Origin: an uncultured candidate division Zixibacteria bacterium
GTDB lineage: Bacteria; Zixibacteria; MSB-5A5; GN15; FEB-12
NCBI GenBank assembly: GCA_963806185.1
Contig: CAWDXE010000003.1
Coordinates: forward strand, 96,001 to 160,000
Length of the DNA: 64,000 bases
Direction: 5' to 3'
Shown piece by piece: positions 13,293 through 45,957 of the stretch. Positions within the stretch are counted from its first letter, which is position 1. Every line of letters begins with the position of its first letter. The notes below the pieces were generated by a model that worked only from the letters and a program-made list of their open reading frames with translations, had not been told where the DNA came from and ran no database searches. A program made the translations under genes and the position numbers.

Positions 13293-14691
13293 GCTCGTCG
13301 GCTCCTTTGACTTCGCCCAGCGGGAGTCGGATGATGAAGCACCCCCCTTTGTCCAGGTTTCTGAATTCTATCGACCCATTATGTGCTTTTATTATGCCGT
13401 AGCATACGGAAAGTCCGAGCCCAGTGCCCTCGCCCGGTTCCTTGGTGGTGAAGAACGGTTCGAAAATGCGCGGAATGATCTCGGCCGGAATGCCGGGCCC
13501 GGAATCGCAGCAGCGGGTGACGACCTCGTGTTCAGACACGGTCGTGGTCACGGTAAGCTTGCCGCCCGTCTTCATAGCATCGCGAGCGTTGATGATCAGG
13601 TTGAGAAACACCTGCTTCAGGTTTTCCGACGAGCCTATGATGATCGGGTTCCGGGCGTCGAGGTGGGTTTCCACTTTGATGTCATGAGAAGCAAGCTGGC
13701 GGTCGACCAGACCGAGGACGTCGCTAATAACATGATTCAGATTCACCGGCTCAAGCGTGGCCTCGCCGGGGCGATGGAATTCGAGGAGTTGGCGGACGAT
13801 GCGGGCGATGCGGTCGATTTCATCACCGACGATGCCAAGGTACTTTTCGGACAGTTCGTGCCCGCCGGCCTCGCGTTTGGTAAGCAGGACGTAGTTCTTG
13901 ATGATGCCGAGCGGGTTGTTGACCTCATGGGCGATTTTGGCGGACATCTCCCCGAGGGCCGCGAGTTTCTCGGTCTGCAGCAGCAGTTGCTGTGCGGACC
14001 GGAGTTCCTGAGTGGCGCGCCGTTCGCCCTCGTATAGGCGGGCGTTTTCGATCGCAACGGCGATCTGGTTGCCGAGGATGGAAAGGAATTCGATATCGTC
14101 GTTGGTGAATGGAGCGTCGGACAGCTTGCCCGACATCAGAAAGACGCCCGACAGACGGGTCTGGTAAATGAGCGGCACGACGATTCCATTCGGGAACTGC
14201 AACAGCAAGGCACTTTCTTCGTCATCGGCAACCTCACGCAGAAGATCGTCCACCACCACCGGGCGATTGAGTTTTGCCAGGTATTGCATGAGGCGGGTTT
14301 CGAGAACGAAACAGGAGGTCGCGTGCGGCGGTTCGCCGGAGCCTTTGAACTTGGCCAGGTCGAAGCGATGGGAGGCGCTGTCGTGCTTGAGAAAGATAGC
14401 GCCTCGGGTGGCGGCTACTTGTCCCAGACAAGTGAAAATGAAAGTGTCCACCAGCATGTGGTAGTCGAGCACGGCATTGAAGTTGCGGCTGATCTCGAAG
14501 ACGGTGTAAAGGTCGAAGATCTTACGCTTGAGCTGGCGGTTGGCGTCACTCAGAAGCTGGAGCTTTTCTTCGAGCTGGCGACGGAGTGCAACGACCGATT
14601 CGGTACGAGGAATCCGCGGCTTGGACGCGGAATTTCGCGCAGCCCGGAGAGTCTTAGCGGTCGTCTTCTTTCGTTCGGCTTTCGGTTTCAT
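13282..14691 (-). CDS. Cytoplasmic GAF-sensor histidine kinase
   Basis: Coiled coil, GAF, AIENARLY, AHEVNNPL, NARDAM, DSGPGI, EPFFTTK, GTGLGL; ATG overlaps the folC stop (ATGA). Confidence 0.9.
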   Translation of the reverse strand: MKPKAERKKTTAKTLRAARNSASKPRIPRTESVVALRRQLEEKLQLLSDANRQLKRKIFDLYTVFEISRNFNAVLDYHMLVDTFIFTCLGQVAATRGAIFLKHDSASHRFDLAKFKGSGEPPHATSCFVLETRLMQYLAKLNRPVVVDDLLREVADDEESALLLQFPNGIVVPLIYQTRLSGVFLMSGKLSDAPFTNDDIEFLSILGNQIAVAIENARLYEGERRATQELRSAQQLLLQTEKLAALGEMSAKIAHEVNNPLGIIKNYVLLTKREAGGHELSEKYLGIVGDEIDRIARIVRQLLEFHRPGEATLEPVNLNHVISDVLGLVDRQLASHDIKVETHLDARNPIIIGSSENLKQVFLNLIINARDAMKTGGKLTVTTTVSEHEVVTRCCDSGPGIPAEIIPRIFEPFFTTKEPGEGTGLGLSVCYGIIKAHNGSIEFRNLDKGGCFIIRLPLGEVKGADEHVV

Positions 14692-15964
14692 TTCCAAACG
14701 TATGATTCAAGGAATTCGCCGACCAAGTAGTGTGAGCCTATCACTGGTAGTATATCGTCCGGGCCGAGCGATTTCAACAGCTTCCGATAGGCGGCGCCGA
14801 GCGAGGCGGCCCCAGTGACGGGGACACCATGCCAATGAGTGGTGGCAATGACCTCGCTGGGCTCGACAGACCGCTTGGTTTTCATGCGAACAAGGGTGTA
14901 ACTTGCGGCAATTGGCGCCAGGGCATCAAACATTTCCTGGTGCTGCTTCTTCTTTACCACGCCGACGATCAGGGGGACTTTTCGTCCCGGATATTTGAGC
15001 CTAAAGCTCTCGGTGAAGGCGCGCGCGCCGCCCTGATTGTGGCAGACGTCGAGGAGCAGTGTGGGACCTTGCTTCACGTTTATTATCTGAAAACGGCCGG
15101 GCCAATCAGTGGACTTTAGACCTGTACATACGGCCCGATCGGGCACGCGCAGACCGAGCGACTTGCACAGCGAGAGTGTTTTGAGGGCCAGAGCCGTGTT
15201 GACCAACTGGTGGCGGCCGATCAGAGCGGGTGAGAGTCTCTTTACCGACAGATTTCCGGATGAGAAATCGAGCGCGAACTGCTCGGGGTACGTTTTGAAT
15301 TGTCTGCGCGAGAGACGATGCAGCGGCGCTTGGCGCGCCTTGCACGTTTGGCGCATAACTCTCTCCGCGTCACCGGGCAACAGGCCGATCAGGTGCGGCA
15401 CCCCAGGCTTGATGATACCGGCCTTCTCCGTGGCGATTTTGGTGAGTGTATCGCCCAGAATGTCGACATGATCAAAACTAATGTCAGTGCAGACTGTGAG
15501 GAGCGGCGTGAGGACGTTGGTAGCGTCGAGTCTCCCCCCCAGGCCCACCTCGATGATGGCAATCTCCACACCCTGACGGGCGAAATGATCGAAGGCGAGG
15601 GCGGTGACTACTTCAAAAAAGGTGACTTTTTTTTTACCAGTATCGTGCGATACCGGTCGACAAAACGAGCAACTGATAGTCGGGGAATCTTCTGGCCGTT
15701 GACCTTGATTCGCTCCCGGAAATCAACCAAGTGAGGAGAGGTATACAATCCGGTCTTGTAGCCGGCGGCGCGAAGGACTGACTCGATCATGGCGGAAGTG
15801 GACCCTTTGCCATTGGTGCCGGAAATATGGATAGCGGCGAAGCGGCGCTGGGGTGCGCCCATCGAATCGAGGAACTGGGCAATATTATCCAGTCCCAGTT
15901 TCATGCCGAAGAACTCGCGCGACAAGAGGAAGTGCTCCGCGCGCTTGTAGGTGTGGCGGCGCAC
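14688..15964 (-). CDS. folC: Folylpolyglutamate synthase/dihydrofolate synthase, frame broken at an A9 run (15627-15635)
   Basis: HISGTNGKGST and YTSPHL in one frame; EVGLGGRLDAT and WPGRFQ in the next; one extra A restores KKKVTFFEVVTALAF; GGAGG-N5-GTG start. Confidence 0.9.
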
Positions 15965-16806
15965 TATGACCTCCACGTGTACCGCAACAGGCGGGCAATG
16001 GTCTCGCGCAGGTCCTTGCGTTCGACAATTTTGTCGAGGAATCCTTTGTCGATGAAAAATTCGGAAGACTGGAAGCCCTCGGGAAGTTCCTGACCGATGG
16101 TTTGCTGGATGACGCGCGGTCCGGCGAAGCCCAGGAGTGCTTTCGGTTCCGCGATGATGACATCACCAAGCGAGGCGTAGGAGGCCATGACGCCGGCGGT
16201 GGTCGGGTTGGTCAGGACCGAGACATACGGAATCTTGCGTTCCGCAAGGATGGCGAGCAGGCCGGAGGTTTTGGCCATCTGCATCAGGGAGAGAATGCCC
16301 TCCTGCATGCGGGCGCCGCCCGAACAGGAGACGATGACGAGAGGGCAGCGGTGTTGAATAGCGCGCTCAATAGTCCGGGCCACTTTTTCGCCCACTACTG
16401 AGCCCATGGAGCCGCCGATAAACGCAAAATCCATGATGCAGAAGGAGACGGCGATGCCATCGATTTTGCCAAGTCCGGTGATCAGGCCCTCGGTGCCATC
16501 CGATTTCTCATTGGCCGCTTTGAGTCGGTCGGGATACCGCTTGGAGTCTTTGAATTTGAGCGGGTCGCCGGAACGAAGGGTGTTATCGAATTCGTCGATA
16601 TGACCGTCGTCAAGAATGATATCTATGTACTTCCGGCTGGAGATGCGGAAGTGGTAATTGCAGCTTGGGCAAACCCAGAGCAGGTCTTCCAGTTTCTTGG
16701 TGTAGATAATTTCTCCACAGGAAGAGCACTTGGTCCACAGCCCTTCGGGGATGTTCTTCTTCTCTTGTGACTGGAGGCCGGTCTTGGCCTTGCGAAACCA
16801 TTCCAT
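15964..16806 (-). CDS. accD: Acetyl-CoA carboxylase carboxyltransferase beta subunit
   Basis: Zn finger CSSC/CPSC, GGSMGSVVGEK, SGGARMQEG, GFAGPRVI. Confidence 0.97.
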   Translation of the reverse strand: MEWFRKAKTGLQSQEKKNIPEGLWTKCSSCGEIIYTKKLEDLLWVCPSCNYHFRISSRKYIDIILDDGHIDEFDNTLRSGDPLKFKDSKRYPDRLKAANEKSDGTEGLITGLGKIDGIAVSFCIMDFAFIGGSMGSVVGEKVARTIERAIQHRCPLVIVSCSGGARMQEGILSLMQMAKTSGLLAILAERKIPYVSVLTNPTTAGVMASYASLGDVIIAEPKALLGFAGPRVIQQTIGQELPEGFQSSEFFIDKGFLDKIVERKDLRETIARLLRYTWRS

Positions 16807-31763: not shown

Positions 31764-33128
31764 CTATCCCAGCGCTGCTTCGAGCGCCGTCTGCAGGTCT
31801 TTTGCGCCAACGATGTCCGGACTCTTTTCGACAAGTTGGGTAAAATTGGCGTGCGGGATGATGATTCGTTTGTACCCCAGTTTCTGAGCCTCGGAAATGC
31901 GCCGGTCCATCTGCGGCACGCCGCGCACTTCACCCGACAAGCCGACCTCGCCGACGACGAGCGTATGCGGGTCAACCGGCTTGTTGAGAAGCGACGAGGT
32001 TATAGCAGTGAGAATGGCGAGGTCGAGCGATGGCTCGGTGGTCTTGAGGCCGCCGACGACCGAGACGAAAACGTCGTGCGTAGACATCGGGTACCCGGCT
32101 CGCTTCTCGAGAATAGCCAGCAAGAGGGCCAGCTTCTTGTTATCGATGCCGCCGGCGACACGCTGGGCGTTGCCGTAGGTAGCGGCCGTTACCAAGGCCT
32201 GCACTTCGATGAGGAGCGAACGATTGCCCTCAAGTACGCTGGTGATTACCGCACCGGAGCGTCCCTTGTCGTATGTTCCGCTCAGGAAGAAGGCGGAGGG
32301 GTTGGAGACCTGGACCAGTCCCTGCGAAGCCATTTCGAAAAGGCCGATTTCGGCGACCGAACCGAAACGGTTCTTGGTGGCGCGAAGCATGCGATAGAGG
32401 TGGGTCTGGTCGCCCTCGAAATACACGACAGTGTCAACCATATGCTCAAGGACTTTGGGGCCAGCCACAAATCCCTCTTTGGTTACGTGACCGACCAGAA
32501 AGAGGGCGAACCCTTGAGTCTTGGCCTGCATGATGAGTTGTCCGGCGGATTCGCGAATTTGCGATACCGTACCTGGGGGAGAATCGATCTGAGCGGAAGC
32601 GATGGTCTGGATCGAGTCGATAAGAACAATCGCATACTGATTGTTGCCGACCAACTGAGTGATTTCCTCCAGACCGGTCGTGTTGACGGCGGTGATGTTC
32701 TCTCCTTTGACCTGCAGGCGGTCGGCACGGGATTTGAGTTGGGGGAGTGATTCCTCACCGGTCACGTAGAGAACAGCCAGTCCCAGGCGCGAGTAGGCCT
32801 CGGCAGCCTGAAGGAGCAGAGTCGATTTGCCGATGCCGGGATCGCCGCCGAGGAGCACAGTCATGCCGGAGAGGAGTTGGCCGCCGAGAACCCGGTCGAA
32901 TTCGTCGATCCCGCTCTTATATCCTGACAATTTCTCAATGGAAATATTGGGAACGCGCACCGGTTCAATTTCGGTGGAGAACCGAGAGGCCTTCTTGCGG
33001 ACAGGCGCTTTTTCCTCGACGAGGGTGTTCCACTGGCCGCACTCGCGGCACTGCCCCTGCCAGCGGGAGTGTTCGGCGCCGCACTGGGTGCAGAAGAAAG
33101 CGGTTTTGTCCTTCTTTTTACTGAGCAT
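31764..33128 (-). CDS. radA: DNA repair protein RadA/Sms
   Basis: C4 Zn finger, GDPGIGKST, KNRFG, GEVGLSGE. Confidence 0.97.
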   Translation of the reverse strand: MLSKKKDKTAFFCTQCGAEHSRWQGQCRECGQWNTLVEEKAPVRKKASRFSTEIEPVRVPNISIEKLSGYKSGIDEFDRVLGGQLLSGMTVLLGGDPGIGKSTLLLQAAEAYSRLGLAVLYVTGEESLPQLKSRADRLQVKGENITAVNTTGLEEITQLVGNNQYAIVLIDSIQTIASAQIDSPPGTVSQIRESAGQLIMQAKTQGFALFLVGHVTKEGFVAGPKVLEHMVDTVVYFEGDQTHLYRMLRATKNRFGSVAEIGLFEMASQGLVQVSNPSAFFLSGTYDKGRSGAVITSVLEGNRSLLIEVQALVTAATYGNAQRVAGGIDNKKLALLLAILEKRAGYPMSTHDVFVSVVGGLKTTEPSLDLAILTAITSSLLNKPVDPHTLVVGEVGLSGEVRGVPQMDRRISEAQKLGYKRIIIPHANFTQLVEKSPDIVGAKDLQTALEAALG

Positions 33129-33892
33129 TAACGCACCTGAATCGGCCCGCTGGCGCTGCCGGTGATGAACTGGCGCACGACTGGGTTGTCGGTGGTGCGA
33201 ACCTGTTCCGGACTGCCGTCAAATTCCACTTTGCCTTCATACAGCATAATGAAACGGCGAGCGATTTTGAAAGCGGACGTCATGTCGTGAGTGACGGCGA
33301 TCGAGGTCGTTTTGAGATGGTCATTAATTTTGGCGATCAACTGATTGATCACGTCGGCCGTGATCGGGTCAAGCCCAGTCGTGGGCTCATCGAACAAAAG
33401 TATCTCAGGCCGGTGGGCGATGGCCCTCGCCAAACCGACCCGCTTGCGCATACCCCCGGAGAGTTCGGATGGGTATTTGGCAGCCGCGCCCGTGAGACCG
33501 ACCAATTCGAGTTTTTCCATGACAATGTCGTGGATTTCTTCCGGCGAGTGGTGCCAGCGGCGGGATTCCTTGAGACCGAGGCCGACGTTTTCTTCGACGG
33601 TCAGACTATCGAAAAGCGCGGCACTCTGGAAGAGCATGCCGAAGCGTTGACGCATAGCCATGAGTTCTTCGCCGTGAAGAGTGCTGATATCCGTGCCCTC
33701 GATGAGAATGCGACCCCGATCCGGGTCCATCAGGCGGATGAGGTGCTTGAGAAAGACCGACTTGCCGGTTCCGGACTGGCCGATAATAACAACGGCTTCG
33801 CCGCGTTCGATAGTCAGATTCAGGCCATCGAGTACGACTTGCGGCCAGAACTGCTTGGCCAGATTTTCAATCTGTATATACGGTACCGACAT
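33128..33892 (-). CDS. mlaF: MlaF/Mkl-type ABC ATPase
   Basis: GQSGTGKS, FQSAALFDS, LSGGMRKRVGLARA, DEPTTGLDP. Confidence 0.88.
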   Translation of the reverse strand: MSVPYIQIENLAKQFWPQVVLDGLNLTIERGEAVVIIGQSGTGKSVFLKHLIRLMDPDRGRILIEGTDISTLHGEELMAMRQRFGMLFQSAALFDSLTVEENVGLGLKESRRWHHSPEEIHDIVMEKLELVGLTGAAAKYPSELSGGMRKRVGLARAIAHRPEILLFDEPTTGLDPITADVINQLIAKINDHLKTTSIAVTHDMTSAFKIARRFIMLYEGKVEFDGSPEQVRTTDNPVVRQFITGSASGPIQVR

Positions 33893-33893
33893 C

Positions 33894-34682
33894 CTACCCT
33901 ATCCTGAAGAGGATGATCGCAAACAGGAAATTGAACACGAGTATCAACACCGATGAAATGACCACCGAAGTGGTCGTTGAGTGGCCTACCCCCTGAGCAC
34001 CGCCCTGAGTGCGGAAGCCTTCGACGCAGGCGACCAGCCCGATGATACCGCCGAAGACGAACGATTTGATGAGGCCGTTCACGAAATCGCCGATGCGGAA
34101 CGAATTGCGGAAGGAGGTCATGAACATCTCGGACGAAACATCCACCCCGACAATCGACACGATCAACCCGCCGATGACGGCAATAAAATTGGCGAAAACG
34201 ACCATGAGGGGCACCATAAACATGCAGGCGAGAACGCGCGGCATGACAAGATAGCTGATCGAGCTGATGCCCATCGATTCGAGCGCGTCAATCTGTTCAG
34301 TGACCTTCATGGTGCCGAGTTCCGCGGCGATACCGGCGCCAACGCGTCCGGCGAGCACAAGCGCAGAGAGCACAGGCGCAAGCTCAATGACGACCGCTTT
34401 GCCGACGGCGCTGCCGAGCAGGCGCAGGGGGGCGCCGATGAACTTGAACTGATACGCTGCCTGCCAGGCCGAAACGGCGCCGACGAAAATCGAAATGACA
34501 ATGATGAGCGGGAAGGAGCGAACACCCACCGAATATAGCTGCTGCATGATGAGTGCGCCGGAACGCGGGGCATCCTTGATCGAATAAACAAACTGCCCAA
34601 GGAGAATAGCGAGAGCGCCGACGCGGCTGATCAGCCCAATCCCACGCCGGCCGACAACATGAAATCCAGTCTCAACAGCCAT
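33894..34682 (-). CDS. mlaE: MlaE-type ABC permease
   Basis: ELAPVL..AGRVGAGIAAELGTMKVTEQIDALE, GGAQGVG. Confidence 0.9.
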   Translation of the reverse strand: MAVETGFHVVGRRGIGLISRVGALAILLGQFVYSIKDAPRSGALIMQQLYSVGVRSFPLIIVISIFVGAVSAWQAAYQFKFIGAPLRLLGSAVGKAVVIELAPVLSALVLAGRVGAGIAAELGTMKVTEQIDALESMGISSISYLVMPRVLACMFMVPLMVVFANFIAVIGGLIVSIVGVDVSSEMFMTSFRNSFRIGDFVNGLIKSFVFGGIIGLVACVEGFRTQGGAQGVGHSTTTSVVISSVLILVFNFLFAIILFRIG

Positions 34683-34687
34683 AAGTG

Positions 34688-36107
34688 CTAAAACGGCATA
34701 TCTCCGCCGACCGGTTCGACGCCCGGAGGGAGATCGCGTCGGCGGTGTTCCAGATTCTCAAATTTCGAGAGATTCTTGAGGAATGTCAATTCAGCCATTC
34801 CGGTCGGGCCGTTGCGCTGTTTGGCAACGATGATTTCGGCCCGGCCCTCTACGTCCTTATATTCCTTGGATTGTTTGTCGTGAATGTATAGTTCCTGCCG
34901 GAAAACGAACATGACCAGGTCCGCATCCTGTTCGATGGCGCCGGATTCTCTGAGGTCGGCCAACTGCGGACGCTTGTCCCCTCCGCGTTGTTCCACCGCA
35001 CGTGACAACTGAGACAGTGCCACTACCGGCACATGAAGTTCCTTGGCGAGTGCCTTCAGGTTTCTGGAAATCAGGGACATTTCTTGTTGGCGGTTTTCGG
35101 AAAAGCCCGATGTATGCATCAACTGAATATAGTCGATGATGAAGAGACCGACATTGTATTGAGCCTTGAGCCGCCGTGCCTTCGCACGCATCTCAAGTGG
35201 AGTCAGGGCGGCAGCATCGTCAATGAAGATCGGGGCACTTGACAGCGAATTGGCGGAATAGGCCAGTTTCTGCCATTCACTATCGCGCAGTTTGTTGGCC
35301 CGCAGCTCATGCTGATTGATGCCTGCTCTGCCGCAGAGCATACGGAATACGAGCTGTTCGCGAGACATTTCCACAGAGAAGATGCCGACGCCTGTGGGTG
35401 AGTCTTTTCGCGTGGCTACGTTTTCGGCGATATTCATCGCCAGCGAGGTCTTCCCCATCGACGGTCGTCCCGCAATAACGACGAAATCTCCCGGATGCAG
35501 ACCAAGCGTCATTTCGTCCAATTTATCGAAACCAGTGAGCAGTCCGGTCGCCATAGAATGGGAATCGATTTGCTCGAGGGTCTGATTGACCAAATTGGCG
35601 ATCGGGATGAAGCCCTCGCGTATTCGCGTCTGTGAAATCTGAAAGATGTGCTGTTCGGCCTGGTCGAGCAGATCGTCCACCGCCTGCTCCTGCGAATAGC
35701 AGCTCTTGACGATTTCATTGGAGGTGTTGATCAGTTTGCGGAGGATCGATTTCTCGAGGACGATATTGGCGTATGATGCGATATTGGCGGTGCTGGCGAC
35801 TTGCTCGACGAGGTCGACCAGATAGACGCGGCCACCGACCTTCTCCAAGGAGGCCCTGCCGCACCAGATCGTTGGCAACAGTCGTAATATCACACGGTTC
35901 GCTGCGCTGATAGAGAGCCAGGATCGACTCGTAGATGATCTGGTGCTTCGGGTAATAGAAATGGTGGGAGTCCTCCAGCACCTCGAGCGCCTGGTTGATG
36001 GCCTCGGCGTCCTTGAGCACCGCCCCGAGGACGGCCTGCTCGGCATCGAGCGATTGCGGCGGCTGGTGAGAGTCGGCAACTTTGTCTGACTTGGTGCGGA
36101 AGGCCAT
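34688..36107 (-). CDS. dnaB: Replicative DNA helicase, with one extra base near 35845-35850
   Basis: PPQSLDAEQAVLG N-terminus in one frame; GRPSMGKT, IDYIQL, DLRESGAIEQDAD, KQRNGPTG in the other. Confidence 0.93.
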
Positions 36108-36947: not shown

Positions 36948-38152
36948 TTACAGCATGCGGGCGATGATTTCAAGGAGATAGCGCGATAATTCACTCTTGG
37001 ATTGCAGTGGGACGTCCAGGGGGTCCGAGCCGGGGCGCAAGATTGTGACTTTGTTGGTGTCGGTGTCGAAGCCTGCGCCAGGGTCGGATGTGGAGTTGAG
37101 CACGATCATGTCAAGTTGCTTATCCACAAGTTTCTTCTTGGCGTTGGAGAGACCGTCGTTAGTTTCGAGGGCGAAGCCGACTACGCGCTGATGGGTACGT
37201 TTGTGCGGGGCAAGGGCTTTGAGGATATCAACGGTAGGCTTCAGTTCGACATTCAGACCCGCCGCGGATTTCTTCACCTTTTCCACATGGGTGTTGACAG
37301 GTGTGAAATCCGCAGGCGCAGCGGCCATAATGAGGCAATCGACCGTATCAAAGTGCTGTCGCACGGCTTCATACATTTCTTGAGTTGTTTCGACTCGTTC
37401 GCAAGTAATGCCGGATGGATCAGGCAGACTGGTCGGGCCGGAGACGAGGACAACGTCGGCGCCGAGCGCTTGCGCTGCCATGGCGAGTGCATACCCCATT
37501 TTGCCTGAACTTCGATTAGAAATGTAGCGGACGGGATCAATGTACTCGCGGCAGGGACCGGCGGTGACGAGAAAGCGCTTACCGGTCAGGACTTTTTTTT
37601 TTGAAGGAGGAAATCTTCGACTGCCTTGAAAATAACGTCCGGCTCCGCCATTCTTCCAACACCCCAGTGATCGCAGGCCATCTCCCCTTCGGCCGGAGAT
37701 ACGGTCATATAGCCAAGCTCGAGCAATGTCTTGTAGTTCCGTTGGGTGGTTTTGTTGAGCCACATCTGCGGATTCATGGCAGGAGCGATCATAACCGACT
37801 TCGGTGTCGCGCAGAGGATAGTGGTGAGCAGGTCATCGGAAATGCCGTTCGCCATCTTGCCCATGAAGTTTGCGGTAGCCGGCGCAACCACGAACAGATC
37901 GGGCCAGGTAGCGAGATCGATGTGGCGGGTGGCGATGAACTCATGATCGGGGAACATCTGAACCGCCACCGGATTTTGCGAGACGGTCTCCATGGTGAGC
38001 GGGGTGATGAATTTGGTGGCGCCGTCGGTCATAATGACGCGTACGTCGCCGTCGGCCTTGGTAATCAGCCGAACAAGATTGGGGATCTTGTAGCAGGCAA
38101 TGCCCCCGGTAAGACCGACAATGACCTTCTTCCCTGCCAGCGACATAGCCAT
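36948..38152 (-). CDS. coaBC: Bifunctional PPC decarboxylase/PPC synthetase, split by a -1 frame change at A10 (37593-37602)
   Basis: GLTGGIACYK, APATAN, PAMN in the CoaC frame; TAGP..E.IDPVRYISNRSSGKMG, GFALET in the CoaB frame. Confidence 0.93.
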
Positions 38153-38625: not shown

Positions 38626-38705
38626 GTCCAGCCTCCACGTAACAGTTAGGAAAAAGATAGGGGGCAGTGGTACGGGATGCAACAAGCAAAAAACACAAGC
38701 CGGAG

Positions 38706-39341
38706 CTATTTGAGCTCCGGCCATTCGGGAAGCGCGACCGGGAGAAAGGAGATGTCATTCAGTCCGGTAAAGACCACCTCGACTTCGATAGTCTCAGCGA
38801 GCTTCAGGAACAGGGCTTTGGGGCGTTCAATTTTGAAATCGTCGAGCTTGATGGTGAATTTTGCTCGCGTCGACAGGGCGAGTGATTCAGCATGCTTGTG
38901 AAGGGAAACCGTGAGTGCCGCCTTGATCTGCCGTTTGACACCATGGATGTAGAAGTACCCCGCGGCTGAGGCGTTGTACAAGGTGTCTGTCTTGAGCACC
39001 GACGGGAGTCCGGAGACAGTTTGCAGCTCGAAGTACGCATCGGGGAACTTGTCGGTATGCAAGTACTTATCGCGCATATGTCCGTCGCGGGTCGCAATGC
39101 CCGTCCGCAGAGTACTCAAGTCGCATTTCAGTGCGCCCGACGCTCCGGAGGCAGTGTTGGCAGGATCGAAGGTTATTGATCCGGTCAGTGTATTGGTCTT
39201 GCCTTCAATGAACTCGAGTTGAGCTGTTGATCGGAAATAGACGGTATCGACGTTCTTCACCGGATCCAGAGTGAATTGCTCGGCGTGCACCTTCGTACCG
39301 ATAAACACAAATATGAAGAGGATAACGAAGCGTGCTCGCAT
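38706..39341 (-). CDS. YceI family polyisoprenoid-binding secreted protein
   Basis: Signal peptide, LRTGIATRDGHMR..YL.TDKFP, IHGVKR, F.IKLDDFKI. Confidence 0.88.
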   Translation of the reverse strand: MRARFVILFIFVFIGTKVHAEQFTLDPVKNVDTVYFRSTAQLEFIEGKTNTLTGSITFDPANTASGASGALKCDLSTLRTGIATRDGHMRDKYLHTDKFPDAYFELQTVSGLPSVLKTDTLYNASAAGYFYIHGVKRQIKAALTVSLHKHAESLALSTRAKFTIKLDDFKIERPKALFLKLAETIEVEVVFTGLNDISFLPVALPEWPELK

Positions 39342-39362
39342 GGATAAACCCTACTCTTTCGT

Positions 39363-40085
39363 CTAGTTATTCGACGCTCCCTGGTTGATCCAGTCGCGTA
39401 TCAAGTTTTGTTCATCGGTGGTCAGATACGGACCACCCAAAGGCATGCGGCTGCCAAACGGCGGCGCCGGGGTAGTCTTAAGGTACAAGTTACTTTGTCC
39501 GCCCAACCCCGGGATCACGTTGGGCGCGTGATCCCCAGTGGTAGTGAGCGTGTTCACGTTGGCAACGCTGAAATTCCCGTTGCCGGGATGACAACCGCCG
39601 CACCCTTTGGCGCTAAACAGCGTCGCAATCTGCGCGGAATAGCTGACGTCGGTGCCACCGTCGCTGGGAGTGATCCTTGTTGTCCCGATACCCTTTGCGA
39701 TCGTCGCGTGAGAGGGAGGACCGAGGGTGATGTCGAACAGTTCGCTCCCCTCAACGTCAGCGTCATCGTTGGTGACCACCACAATCTTGGTACTGGTCGT
39801 ACCGGCAGTAATCGTGCCGGTACCGGAAAGTGCACCGGAGAAGTCGAGGTCGGAAGTGGAGCGGTTGACCAAGGCATAAGAGAACGTAATGTCGGTAGCC
39901 GCGGCAGAACTGAGGGTGACAACGAATGTCACGCTGTTACCCTCGCTGATACCCACCGGATCGTTGATGGATAGCGTAGGCGTGGCGCCGCCGCCGGGGC
40001 TATTGGGCGCTTTGCCGCTATCTGAGCACGAAGCCGCAATCAGCGCGAGAATCGCAACAACAAGGCCGAGAATCCTGGTATTCAT
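39363..40085 (-). CDS. Lipoprotein with a Calx-beta domain and C-terminal monoheme cytochrome c
   Basis: Lipobox AASC, Calx-beta (SEG..VTFVVTLS..DDADVEGSELF), CGGCH, RMPLGG..L...IRDWINQGA. Confidence 0.85.
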   Translation of the reverse strand: MNTRILGLVVAILALIAASCSDSGKAPNSPGGGATPTLSINDPVGISEGNSVTFVVTLSSAAATDITFSYALVNRSTSDLDFSGALSGTGTITAGTTSTKIVVVTNDDADVEGSELFDITLGPPSHATIAKGIGTTRITPSDGGTDVSYSAQIATLFSAKGCGGCHPGNGNFSVANVNTLTTTGDHAPNVIPGLGGQSNLYLKTTPAPPFGSRMPLGGPYLTTDEQNLIRDWINQGASNN

Positions 40086-40104
40086 ATTCAGTTCGTCCCT
40101 TTAC

Positions 40105-41133
40105 TCAGTATCCGACGTGGAGTTGGAGGAAGAAGTCCTTCTCGTCCTTCAGTGGCCCGCTGGTGTAGACCGTGTACGACGGACGCACGAGGACAAACGG
40201 TATCGGGTACAATTCAAGCGAGAAGCGCAGGAATTCTTCCGTTCCGTCGGCGATCCGGCGATTGCCGTCGAAGAAATTGTATTCCCCGACCAGATACAGG
40301 CCGTACTGGATGCGCGTGGTCAGTTGTCCATACGAAATTAGTGTATCGTTACTCCTGCCGACGATATCCCATTCGCCGAGAAGCGTGAACCGATCGTAGT
40401 TCAGCCCACCGAATAGCGCCTTGGCGTGGGGAAAGGAACCAGTGGAACCGGCGACTCTTTCCGAGAGGCGTAAGGAGGCCCCGGCGAGATACCCAAAGGG
40501 ACCAACGGCCCCGGGCCGGTAGGCGTGGAGGGTGTAAACGCCTTGATGGTTGGGGCTGAAGGCCTCGCCGACAATGCTGACCCCCGCGACGTCTGCTCCC
40601 AGAGAGAGACCGTCGAGATACAGAAGTGGCGAGTTGCCGGTACGGGATCGATTGAACGAAGTGTGATCTTCGTTGTGTACTCCGAAGGCCGGAGCAAATC
40701 GACCTGCCTTGAGGTAGTACTTCTGTTGATCGAGGAAATACACGGCATAGTTTTCGGTGATGCCGGTCTCCCCCATTCGCAGCACATACGAGAAGTTCTG
40801 AAATGGCGTGAGTTCGAGAAAGAGATCGGTCTGCATACGAAAGACACGACCGTTGTCGAAAACCAGATGGCGCGAGTCAAAGCCGACTCTGGCATTTTCG
40901 GACACACGAGTCGGTTTGTATTTTTTCGCAAAGAGCTTTTTTGTTTGCGGCAAGGTAAGCTCATTGAAAGCGACAGCGTGATTGCCGAATTCGGTGCGCA
41001 TTCCACCCCCGTTGGGATTAACGTGGCAGGTAACGCATTTCTCTCCGCTTTCCGCGGACAGGCGAGGAAAGCTGTAGATGGAGGCAGCGATGATCAGCGC
41101 CAGACCGAGTAATGGCAAGAGAATTCTGTACAT
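40105..41133 (-). CDS. Outer-membrane beta-barrel with an N-terminal CxxCH heme motif
   Basis: Signal peptide, CVTCHVNPNGGGMR, KAGRFAPAFG porin-like motif, C-terminal beta-signal LQLHVGY. Confidence 0.8.
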   Translation of the reverse strand: MYRILLPLLGLALIIAASIYSFPRLSAESGEKCVTCHVNPNGGGMRTEFGNHAVAFNELTLPQTKKLFAKKYKPTRVSENARVGFDSRHLVFDNGRVFRMQTDLFLELTPFQNFSYVLRMGETGITENYAVYFLDQQKYYLKAGRFAPAFGVHNEDHTSFNRSRTGNSPLLYLDGLSLGADVAGVSIVGEAFSPNHQGVYTLHAYRPGAVGPFGYLAGASLRLSERVAGSTGSFPHAKALFGGLNYDRFTLLGEWDIVGRSNDTLISYGQLTTRIQYGLYLVGEYNFFDGNRRIADGTEEFLRFSLELYPIPFVLVRPSYTVYTSGPLKDEKDFFLQLHVGY

Positions 41134-41220
41134 AAGCTCCCGGTTCCAGAACATGACACAGGCGAACGAATGTGGCGTCGCTCGTGCGTTGTTAAATAGC
41201 GGTCGCTGGGTTAGCGTCAG

Positions 41221-41264
41221 AAAGAAGATCGGCGACCGTCACTCTCTAGAGTTGGGCGGTCGCC
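41221..41264 (-). terminator. Terminator after purH
   Basis: GGCGACCGTC/GGCGGTCGCC stem followed by TCTTCTTT on the minus strand. Confidence 0.55.
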
Positions 41265-41276
41265 AATTCGTGCAGG

Positions 41277-43748: not shown

Positions 43749-44358
43749 CGGGTATCGTGTACTTCCCTGTTATGAGTTTCTGCAAGGCCTTGGGATACAA
43801 TTTGTGTTCTTCGGAGAGCACGCGTTCGGCCAGTGTCTCCGGCGTGTCCCCTTTGTGCACCGGGACTTTCACCTGTTCCAGCACTATACCATGGTCATAG
43901 ATTTCGTCGACAAGATGAATAGTCACTCCGGATTCGACTTCGTTGGCGTCGATGACCGCTTGATGAACATGGTGGCCATACATTCCCTTCCCGCCGTACT
44001 TGGGCAACAGAGCCGGGTGAATGTTGACGACGCGATGCGGATAGAGCTCCAATACCCTCGTAGGGATCAGCTTCAGAAATCCGGCCAAAGCGACGTACTG
44101 CACGTGACGGGATTGCAGGGCGGCGATAAGTTGTTCCGTGGCGGCAGGGCGCTCCCCCGCTCTGGGGGCGTAGACCAGCGTATCGATGCCGTGCTTTTTT
44201 GCCCGTTCCAGACCGTAGGCGTCGGCAGTCGATGAGACGACCAGTACGATGCGGACCGAGAGTTCGCCGCGCGCAGCCGCATCGATGAGCGATTGCAGGC
44301 CTGTTCCGCGACCTGATATGAAAACGGCTATGTTGGTTAGTTTCTCCGGCATGGTCAC
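43723..44358 (-). CDS. purN: Phosphoribosylglycinamide formyltransferase
   Basis: SGRGT, LAGFLK, NIHPALLP, YDHG. Confidence 0.95.
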   Translation of the reverse strand: MTMPEKLTNIAVFISGRGTGLQSLIDAAARGELSVRIVLVVSSTADAYGLERAKKHGIDTLVYAPRAGERPAATEQLIAALQSRHVQYVALAGFLKLIPTRVLELYPHRVVNIHPALLPKYGGKGMYGHHVHQAVIDANEVESGVTIHLVDEIYDHGIVLEQVKVPVHKGDTPETLAERVLSEEHKLYPKALQKLITGKYTIPDGKHHPHH

Positions 44359-45805
44359 GCCTCGAGTTTCTCCTTGAGGAGTCGGTTGACCGCCTCCGGG
44401 TTGGCCTGGCCGCAGGTCTCTTTCATGACCTGCCCGACAAAGAAGGCGAAGACGTTGGTCTTTCCGCTGCGGTATTTCGCGACATTGTCAGGATTGGCAG
44501 ACAGAATTCGTTCAATTACCGGAACGAGCGCACCATCGTCGGAAATCTGCACCAAACCCTTTTCTTTGATTATAACCGACGGGGCTTTGCCGGTGGCTGT
44601 CATTTCCTCGAATACGGTCTTGGCAAGCTTACCGGAGAGTTCGCCTGATTTCACTTTAGATGAGTAGCTCGGCGATTTGCTTTGGACGAGCGGGGAGATC
44701 CTCAATTTCAATTTTGCGATCCCTGACCGCGCCGAGGACCTCGGTCTGAATCCAGCTCGCGGCGGCACGACCATCGTCAAAGCCGCGCATGACTTCTTCG
44801 TAGAAATCGGCCAGCCCACGAGTGGTGGTAAGGACCGTGCCGTCATACTCGCGCACCCCGTACTGCGAGACGAAGCGAGCCGCTTTCTGTTCGGCCAGCT
44901 CCGGCATATTACGGCGGACTTCCTCGATCCACTCGTCGGAGACGACGAGATTGACCAGATCGGGTTCCGGGAAATACCGGTAGTCGTGCGATTCTTCTTT
45001 GGTGCGCATTTCGCGCGCGACCTGCTTGTCTTCGTCCCACAACATAGTCGCCTGGGTGACCGTACCACCCGACTTGATCAGTTTGATCTGCCGCTGGATT
45101 TCATAATCGAGCGCGCGCTCGACTCCCTTAAAGGAGTTCATGTTTTTCACTTCGGTGCGCGTGCCAAATTCTGTCTGACCAACCGGACGAACGGAGACGT
45201 TGGCGTCGCAGCGCAGGTGCCCTTTTTCCATATCACCGGAGCAAACGCCGGTGTACTGGAGTATCTGCTTAAGTTTGAGTAGATAGGCATGTGCTTCCTG
45301 GGGTGAGCGGAGGTCGGAGGCGCCGACCATTTCGATGAGCGGCACACCACAGCGATTCAGATCGACACGCGTGTACGTTCCTCCCCCTTCAGGGTGAAGC
45401 GACTTGCCGGCGTCTTCTTCTATATGAATGCGAGTGAGCCGGCATGACATCTTGTCGCCGTTCTCCAGCTGGAAGCGGATTTCGCCCCCCTCGCCGATGG
45501 GGCGATCGTACTGCGAAATCTGGTACCCTTTGGGGAGGTCGGGATAGAAGTAGTTCTTGCGGGCGAAGACCGACCGGTTGTGGATGGTGCCACCAACGGC
45601 GAGGATCATTTTCATCGCCAGTTCGACCGCACTCTTGTTGAGCACCGGCAAGTGCGCCGGGCAGGCCAAGGCAGACCGGGCAAGTGAGCGAGTTGGCCGG
45701 CTCGCCGTAGGCGTTTCTGCAGCCGCAGAAAATTTTGGAATTGGTCAGGAGCTGGGCGTGTACCTCGAGCCCGATGACCGGTTCAAATCCGTCGATAGCG
45801 GCCAA
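44355..45805 (-). CDS. gatB: Asp/Glu-tRNA amidotransferase subunit B, with two single-base insertions (about 45650 and 44658)
   Basis: [58 protein letters not shown] spread over three frames. Confidence 0.93.
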
Positions 45806-45957
45806 GTTCCCGTCCTTGATCAGATTCTCCTGCAACCGGAAGGTTTGTCCTCATTTGCTGACCGGTTGCCGAAGGGCTTGCGTTAAGTCGCGAAATATAT
45901 GGTCCCCCCAACGAAAGTCAATTGGTATGCCGCACCCTCGAAGCGCGCCCTAACCGA

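Follow-up and report, generated by a model that had tools for sequence, protein, structure and literature searches.

The window analysed here is a stretch of 64,000 nucleotides (nt) from an uncultured candidate division Zixibacteria bacterium (GenBank assembly GCA_963806185.1, contig CAWDXE010000003.1, positions 96,001 to 160,000 of the forward strand). On its minus strand lies a cassette of three intact, co-oriented genes for exported proteins, namely a predicted heme-bearing outer-membrane barrel, a lipoprotein cytochrome c and a YceI-family protein, and the gaps of 19 and 21 nt between them, given by an earlier reading of the sequence alone, were confirmed exactly by the open reading frames (ORFs). 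In window coordinates the features are:

40105..41154, minus strand: barrel ORF, fused monoheme cytochrome c-porin of 349 amino acids (aa), with a signal peptide, a helical heme module of ~55 residues and a predicted 16-strand barrel
41023..41037, minus strand: CVTCH heme-attachment motif of the barrel protein (residues 40-44)
40117..40119, minus strand: His346 of the barrel protein, in the last strand, a candidate distal heme ligand by conservation
39363..40085, minus strand: lipoprotein cytochrome ORF of 240 aa, with lipobox Cys20, followed by a Gly/Pro linker, a single Calx-beta-like spacer and, at the C-terminus, a monoheme His/Met cytochrome c with a PSCyt1/FoxE-like fold
39588..39602, minus strand: CGGCH heme motif of the lipoprotein (sequence motif)
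39444..39446, minus strand: Met214 (RMP) of the lipoprotein, likely distal heme ligand, an invariant column in a 107-row alignment
38706..39341, minus strand: exported YceI-family lipocalin of 211 aa (PF04264, E 5e-21), of a subfamily common to heme-porin and DUF5777 cassettes
41228..41267 (about), minus strand: hairpin between purH and the cassette, a possible weak terminator (folding z -3.0)
38698..38722, minus strand: terminator-like hairpin with a U-run, overlapping the yceI stop (terminator scan; folding z -1.85)

The cassette is real, conserved and unstudied, and its barrel protein is a novel member of the fused cytochrome-porin type set within a modular cassette. The barrel had no match in Pfam or NCBIfam, neither of which has a model for its family, and the family had no sequence-level relative in the PDB (best E 1.1); a search of 1.84 billion representative sequences returned 654 clusters (50% identity, E ≤ 0.001), and a GTDB scan confirmed at least 588 of 600 stretches, the best 80 of which came from Ignavibacteria, Bacteroidota, Nitrospiraceae, Terriglobia, Latescibacterota, Eisenbacteria, Gemmatimonadetes and others. 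Family members are mostly single copy, and no fusions to further domains were seen among alignments at 726-2070 aa only, which is a weak negative. The sequence-only reading had given the barrel its own heme segment, CVTCH followed by GGGM. The first part held, with CxxCH in 120/120 full-length representatives (335-420 aa; 29 rows of other lengths were left out) and 119/119 close homologues, but the second did not, as residue 52 of GGGM is Met in only 50% and Leu in 29% of 118 diverse homologues, which rules it out as a conserved heme ligand. In those 118 rows Cys40, Cys43, His44, Gly49, Arg53, Gly91 and Gly151 are invariant, and Met107 (89%), His164 (87%) and His346 (93%) are well conserved. 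A His fourth from the C-terminus is present in 111 of 121 family members, compared to 1 of 58 proteins carrying the motif of Cyc2, and on such conservation His346 is a better candidate for the distal ligand than Met52; from strand alternation this residue, four from the C-terminus, is expected to point into the lumen close to the heme module, at the periplasmic end, so that the barrel would carry a heme ligated by His44 and His346.

An AlphaFold2 model of the barrel protein (predicted local distance difference test 97, predicted template modelling score 0.91) shows a helical N-terminal module and 16 strands. Its nearest solved fold is OprP (2o4v; Z 22.4, root mean square deviation (rmsd) 2.8, 271 residues aligned), whose lead over other 16-strand porins is less than 1 Z and effectively a tie, and in the ESM Atlas the nearest clusters are unnamed, the nearest named one having Porin_O_P on 20% of its members. 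Charged residues are conserved in the barrel, as is an Asp-His in the long loop after strand 5. Heme-less porins that are distant kin of the barrel (E about 1e-20) were seen directly 3' of apparent formate dehydrogenase alpha and beta genes at three loci (L262-L264).

Cyc2 and Cyt572, which are fused monoheme Fe(II) oxidases, share with the barrel protein a signal peptide, a short N-terminal CxxCH module, a Pro ten residues before the first Cys and a 16-strand OprP-like barrel (predicted here); Keffer et al. likewise give Cyc2 16 strands and an OprO/OprP match, and name AXPXFAR[Q/K][T/Y] upstream of CxxCH and PXL downstream as its diagnostic motifs (bioRxiv 10.1101/228056). For comparison, 120 metagenome loci with the published Cyc2 motif were collected and the 58 full-length proteins used, a motif-based choice that favours an N-terminal match. 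By hhalign the N-terminal module of the barrel family matched these with P 97.7% and E 1.7e-12 over 33 columns, compared to P 72.7% and E 3e-5 over 16 columns for a control against CxxCH-centred windows of the partner cytochrome, and on this profile evidence the heme module is homologous to that of Cyc2. Whole proteins matched with P 97.4% and the barrels alone with P 7% (E 0.005). An upstream motif of the PxFAR[QK][TY] type was found in 0/121 family members (a looser Px[FYL][AS]x6C pattern in 98/121) and PXL in 0/121, compared to 54/58 Cyc2-motif proteins, whereas a motif of their own, of the CHxxPxGxxxR type, was present in 116/121. Because both diagnostic motifs are absent and the family has its own, it is, as judged by sequence, an unnamed sister family of Cyc2, cytochrome-porin-like but not a Cyc2 member. 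It is also shorter (mature length 305-397 residues, compared to 373-479), has the conserved last-strand His and is linked to a FoxE-like lipoprotein and YceI. A home-made hidden Markov model built from the 58 motif-selected proteins did not list the window barrel, the best score of the family being 29 bits. Separate Cyc2-motif genes are present in five relatives and, frameshifted in the assembly, in the host genome, where the gene (G000:C5:205756-207080, minus strand; PAFARKY...CNMCH) is split over three frames and lies 3' of a diheme peroxidase-like gene, a pairing that recurs in L252 and L255.

The cassette also resembles MtrAB, MtoAB and PioAB in joining an outer-membrane barrel to a cytochrome, but its partner is monoheme, its small 16-strand barrel carries its own heme motif, and there is no multiheme partner. 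The window barrel did not match PF11854 (the MtrB/PioB-family porin), and no protein of the host genome did. In three relatives negative for PF00115, the heme-copper oxidase family, a gene with ten CxxCH motifs resembling mtrA is followed by an MtrB-like porin (approximately L304:2084-5245, L305:2915-6152 and L306:3555-6708), which is interrupted at the same place by one in-frame TGA (parts of 578-583 and 146-147 aa). A TGA of this kind is present in seven genomes, and the protein is likely to be a selenocysteine porin.

The lipoprotein was described by the sequence-only reading as a monoheme CGGCH...RMP cytochrome carried on a Calx-beta spacer. Lipobox, CGGCH and RMP were all borne out, but Pfam did not detect Calx-beta in the window copy and found it in relatives only (4 of 6 relatives' cytochromes scanned, E 2e-9 to 5e-23); the spacer is optional, with 0 to 4 copies across the family. 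Pfam cytochrome c matches of the window protein were sub-threshold, and PSCyt1 (PF07635), whose function is called unknown in 10.1101/150078, was matched at E ≤ 0.01 by 80 of 107 family domains, the window copy not being among them. The Cys, Cys, His and Met columns of the heme domain are invariant, and the motif spacing is Cx2CH in 57/106 and Cx4CH in 45/106 (four domains without a recognisable end were dropped from this count). The family profile matches FoxE (E 1.5e-15), hydrazine synthase alpha (4e-9) and PccH (3e-4), and the cytochrome model aligns to FoxE with Z 10.9 and rmsd 2.3 over 96 residues. FoxE (Rhodobacter ferrooxidans, PDB 5mab) and PccH (Geobacter, PDB 4rlr), also of His/Met type, are thus the closest characterised electron carriers to this domain, and both are presented as electron-uptake proteins in PMC10654088 and PMC13591261. 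The cassette cytochrome differs from them in being a monoheme lipoprotein on an optional stalk, often with Cx4CH, whereas FoxE is diheme, and neither foxY nor foxZ is among the cassette neighbours, which are purH and DUF494. The lipoprotein would be located in the periplasm; it does not match (C-S-D-S-G-K) the surface-export signal K-(D/E)2 or Q-A-(D/E)2 reported for Bacteroidota (PMC5080379), a signal that may not apply in the host phylum. Asp at +3 of the family lipoproteins (66/69) was not used as evidence, since the classifier required D/E/S there.

Conservation of the neighbourhood was followed in 151 genomes of the host class, adjacency being taken as within 3 kb. A full-length barrel is present in 63 of these (single-protein and profile searches agree, with a gap in E from 1e-82 to 1e-18), and the cytochrome is adjacent in 58/63. 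YceI is adjacent in 38, elsewhere in 19 and not found in 6; all 38 with adjacent YceI also have the cytochrome, and in two of them YceI is divergent. Among 80 loci from other lineages (43 of which had at least 2.5 kb on both sides) the cytochrome was found in 43 and YceI, by a profile built from Zixibacteria, in 5. Linkage is kept in different flanking contexts, gene orders and other phyla. The core is the barrel-cytochrome pair, and YceI is not obligate. In other lineages a soluble cytochrome of the same fold often lies 3' of the lipoprotein cytochrome; across 130 loci (L001-L130) 17 have both kinds, and YceI (35 loci) and the non-lipoprotein cytochrome (43 loci, 3 of them misclassified) never occur together. 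Occasional neighbours are cupredoxins and P460-like cytochromes, and one locus (L047) combines the barrel with a soluble cytochrome and with a cupredoxin whose C-terminal domain is of secretion type. In family f6 and in Nitrospiraceae (L034, L258, L107, L109, L128) the heme porin gene is immediately preceded by one for a P460-like repeat lipoprotein. In G125 (L270) the lipoprotein cytochrome is kept between purH and DUF494, barrel and YceI both being absent, and no PF00115 match of that genome is over cut-off.

The third gene is indeed a yceI, as had been proposed (PF04264, 76 bits against a cut-off of 23.7), with a hydrophobic N-terminus and X158 (2x32, E 2e-4) as its best solved match, and a separate canonical YceI is encoded elsewhere in the host genome. 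In a 53-row tree, rooted at the midpoint only, nine DUF5777-linked YceI form one clade (100/100) nested in a supported 40-row group (97/92), the rest of which is 30 heme-porin-linked and one unlinked YceI, and canonical YceI is distant, on a long branch. No YceI fusions were seen among alignments at 371-2000 aa, a weak negative. At L278, L279 and L281 an unlinked YceI of the cassette group is followed by a conserved protein of 110-125 aa without a Pfam match. YceI proteins bind polyisoprenoids and other hydrophobic ligands, and BcnA/LcoA act in envelope peroxyl detoxification (PMC9113575); the X158 plus cytochrome protein Cbp2D reduces lytic polysaccharide monooxygenases (LPMOs; PMC8981238). 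BcnA-LcoA, a YceI with a cytochrome b561, and Cbp2D/Cbp2E, in which X158 is combined with cytochrome c domains, resemble the cassette in tying a YceI-family quinone or polyisoprenoid binder genetically to a heme protein, but the cassette YceI is partnered by a heme porin of the outer membrane and a cytochrome c that is a lipoprotein, and the cassette includes neither b561 (host PF01292 matches lie on other contigs) nor a carbohydrate-binding module. The ligand of the cassette YceI may be a quinone, which it may shuttle.

Eight class genomes have the cytochrome but no heme porin, and in four of them (G004, G009, G014 and G103, the last cut by a contig end) cytochrome and YceI lie beside a DUF5777 barrel. 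DUF5777 (PF19089) is over cut-off in 15/151 genomes, with YceI adjacent in 9/15, and only G116 has both barrels, its DUF5777 cassette being additional to a heme-porin cassette. That the heme-porin barrel might itself be a DUF5777 was considered and ruled out, as neither the window barrel nor 27 family members matched PF19089 and hhalign gave P 0.8%. The two cassettes share a cytochrome family and a YceI subfamily, in each case next to a barrel of the outer membrane, but the DUF5777 barrel is unrelated by profile, lacks CxxCH and is itself uncharacterised, and so the barrel slot looks swappable. DUF5777 has two invariant His in five aligned sequences and no sequence-level PDB relative; our guess from these residues is that it may bind heme b. 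The earlier proposal of a compact outer-membrane redox module stands as far as a conserved exported Cyc2-like redox cassette goes, but not as a fixed trio, given the loose YceI linkage and the replaceable barrel. In family f15 (L294-L297) the lipoprotein cytochrome and DUF5777 lie with a further gene and a protein which by its motif we take to be Rieske-like, with no YceI in the stored flanks; three of these loci have a divergent exported protein with a single CxxCH.

PF00115 was over cut-off in 62/63 barrel genomes, compared to 39/88 others (family-stratified p about 1e-6). In six families with both barrel-bearing and PF00115-negative genomes, 15 of 16 of the latter lack the barrel, and 14/15 DUF5777 genomes are PF00115-positive. 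Cytochrome c maturation genes were present in 147/151 genomes and so do not explain this split.

The cassette is surrounded by housekeeping genes, and its GC content and third-position GC are close to those of flanking genes, giving no sign of recent transfer. The barrel protein probably starts at Met8 (41133), which follows GGGAG, close homologues being mostly 340-350 aa. A terminator between purH and the cassette had been suggested; the hairpin there is strong (0/200 shuffles as good), but it was not called by the terminator scan, having a weak U-tail. That scan called the site after yceI, one of 9 against 6.8 expected, a promoter scan gave 4 sites against 3.3 expected, and Rfam had no match in the window. 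The host genome is 82% complete and has three CcsA/CcmF-family genes, which with the conserved CxxCH and the recurrence of the trio elsewhere agrees with the sequence-only reading. It has 85 six-frame ORFs with CxxCH, many of them spurious frames, including large multiheme clusters; very large multiheme cytochromes (42, 31 and 20 CxxCH) lie at G000:C1:7524-21262 and C7:303487-307592. Four further genes of the window (14688-15976, 34688-36107, 36948-38152 and 44355-45835), which by their motifs we take to be folC-, dnaB-, coaBC- and gatB-like, are each broken over several frames, which suggests assembly indel errors and not pseudogenes. At 33128-34682, ~4 kb downstream of the cassette, are presumably MlaE/MlaF-like ABC genes, with no adjoining mlaD in the ORF list.

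The reading that we tentatively place first is that the cassette is a low-flux, one-electron outer-membrane relay of oxygen-exposed cells with inward flow. A covalent heme would sit at the periplasmic mouth of the predicted 16-strand porin and would likely accept one electron from a reduced compound outside the cell; this electron would travel through the lipid-anchored cytochrome to a heme-copper oxidase, YceI being a likely accessory that carries quinone. Contact between barrel and cytochrome, inward direction and a donor such as Fe(II) or reduced organics are presumed in this scheme. Electron transfer at the outer membrane is argued for by the heme motif in the barrel and the constant one-electron carrier, and inward flow is ranked first because a heme-copper sink is present in the hosts and, for both heme proteins, the characterised relatives that carry electrons bring them into the cell. 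That the cassette lies among housekeeping genes, is mostly single copy and coexists with separate Cyc2 and multiheme systems suggests that it carries a low flux and is not part of the main energy metabolism. Several points weigh against this relay. In a Foldseek search with the cytochrome model hydrazine synthase came first (E 0.011) and FoxE only tenth (E 3.9), and a shared cytochrome fold shows no function. PF00115 includes NO reductases, which were counted in; five strong MtrB matches are all in PF00115-positive genomes, and as MtrB shows the same bias the barrel association may mark lifestyle only. Kin genomes in the sample are not independent, and incomplete bins lose genes together. No oxidase or alternative complex III genes were among the recurring neighbour families listed, and 36/130 loci have, by profiles, neither cytochrome nor YceI nearby, some being cut by contig ends. 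Because the barrel can give way to DUF5777, which lacks CxxCH, the cassette does not depend on a covalent barrel heme, and YceI is without an obvious job in an inward chain entering at the level of cytochrome c.

This last point is better explained if the relay of oxygen-exposed cells is outward and reductive, with YceI ferrying quinol from the inner membrane through the periplasm, the barrel heme passing the electron out and the stalked lipoprotein cytochrome as a surface terminal that would reduce Fe(III)/Cu(II), lipid radicals in the outer membrane or an enzyme at the cell surface. This gives all three parts a role and is a close second, possible but somewhat less probable than inward flow. 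That YceI and the soluble cytochrome exclude each other, and that 17 loci have a lipoprotein as well as a soluble cytochrome, would fit a single periplasmic position open to either YceI or the soluble cytochrome, but the exclusion follows phylum lines and may be one event. The spacer of 0 to 4 Calx-beta domains, the secretion-type domain of the L047 cupredoxin and the precedents of BcnA/LcoA and Cbp2D speak for the outward relay; against it, the window lipoprotein lacks the Bacteroidota export signal (with the reservation given above), Cyc2-type hemes are modelled on the periplasmic side (PMC13692758), far from a surface partner, and the characterised proteins related to either heme protein act in uptake. 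We think it unlikely that the barrel is instead a redox-coupled uptake channel, in which a small anionic or hydrophobic solute would enter, undergo oxidation or reduction at the heme and then pass to YceI: the OprP-like solute-porin fold, the charged residues and loop Asp-His, the filling of the slot by a barrel without CxxCH and the hydrophobic ligands of YceI proteins would suit it, but no TonB, ABC or catabolic genes were among the recurring neighbour families listed and the constant partners (cytochrome, cupredoxin, P460-like, Rieske-like) are one-electron carriers. An ordinary divergent Cyc2, oxidising Fe(II) for energy conservation, would have the same architecture, homologous heme module and FoxE-like partner, but is improbable given the missing diagnostic motifs, the family's own motif, the poor barrel-only match, the shorter proteins and the coexisting Cyc2-motif genes. 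Least probable by far is that the three genes are neighbours by descent only and share no function; the stable purH-DUF494 slot in the host family, the unlinked YceI in 19/63 and the lone cytochrome of G125 would allow this, but linkage holds across flanks, gene orders and phyla and is rebuilt around a non-homologous barrel.

Beyond the inward relay and its rivals, we offer a broader proposal, less probable than the inward relay, that such cassettes represent a class of modular electron relays across the envelope, widespread and so far undescribed, in bacteria of the FCB (Fibrobacterota, Chlorobiota and Bacteroidota) group and related bacteria that are exposed to oxygen. There would be three swappable slots. 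The periplasmic shuttle would be either YceI-bound quinone or a soluble FoxE-like cytochrome, the outer-membrane barrel either the Cyc2-sister heme porin or the unrelated DUF5777, and a FoxE-like cytochrome, a cupredoxin or a Rieske protein would serve as the lipid-anchored carrier of single electrons.

The trio had been put forward as having no described counterpart, and our searches agree, as no curated family or paper for it was found. A literature search whose scope excluded most subscription papers gave none that pairs Cyc2 with YceI or names DUF5777, and neither barrel family nor cassette is described in the accessible parts of PMC5566968, 10.64898/2026.05.27.727921, PMC3903129, PMC13741234, 10.1101/2021.03.22.436458, bioRxiv 10.1101/228056, PMC9113575, 10.1101/150078, PMC10654088, PMC13591261, PMC8981238, PMC13692758 and PMC5080379. 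Cyc2 is the only characterised fused cytochrome-porin family that we found and is used as a marker of iron oxidation, and a sister family as large as this one, common in uncultured sediment and groundwater lineages, would widen the roles of such proteins, and surveys of genomes could overlook or misinterpret it. The cassette bears on the role of PSCyt1-type cytochromes and DUF5777 and on quinone transport across the periplasm by YceI, and the barrel swap joins two orphan cassette types into one system. If the modular relay proposal is true, quinone carried by a protein would connect the pool of the inner membrane directly with a heme in the outer membrane.

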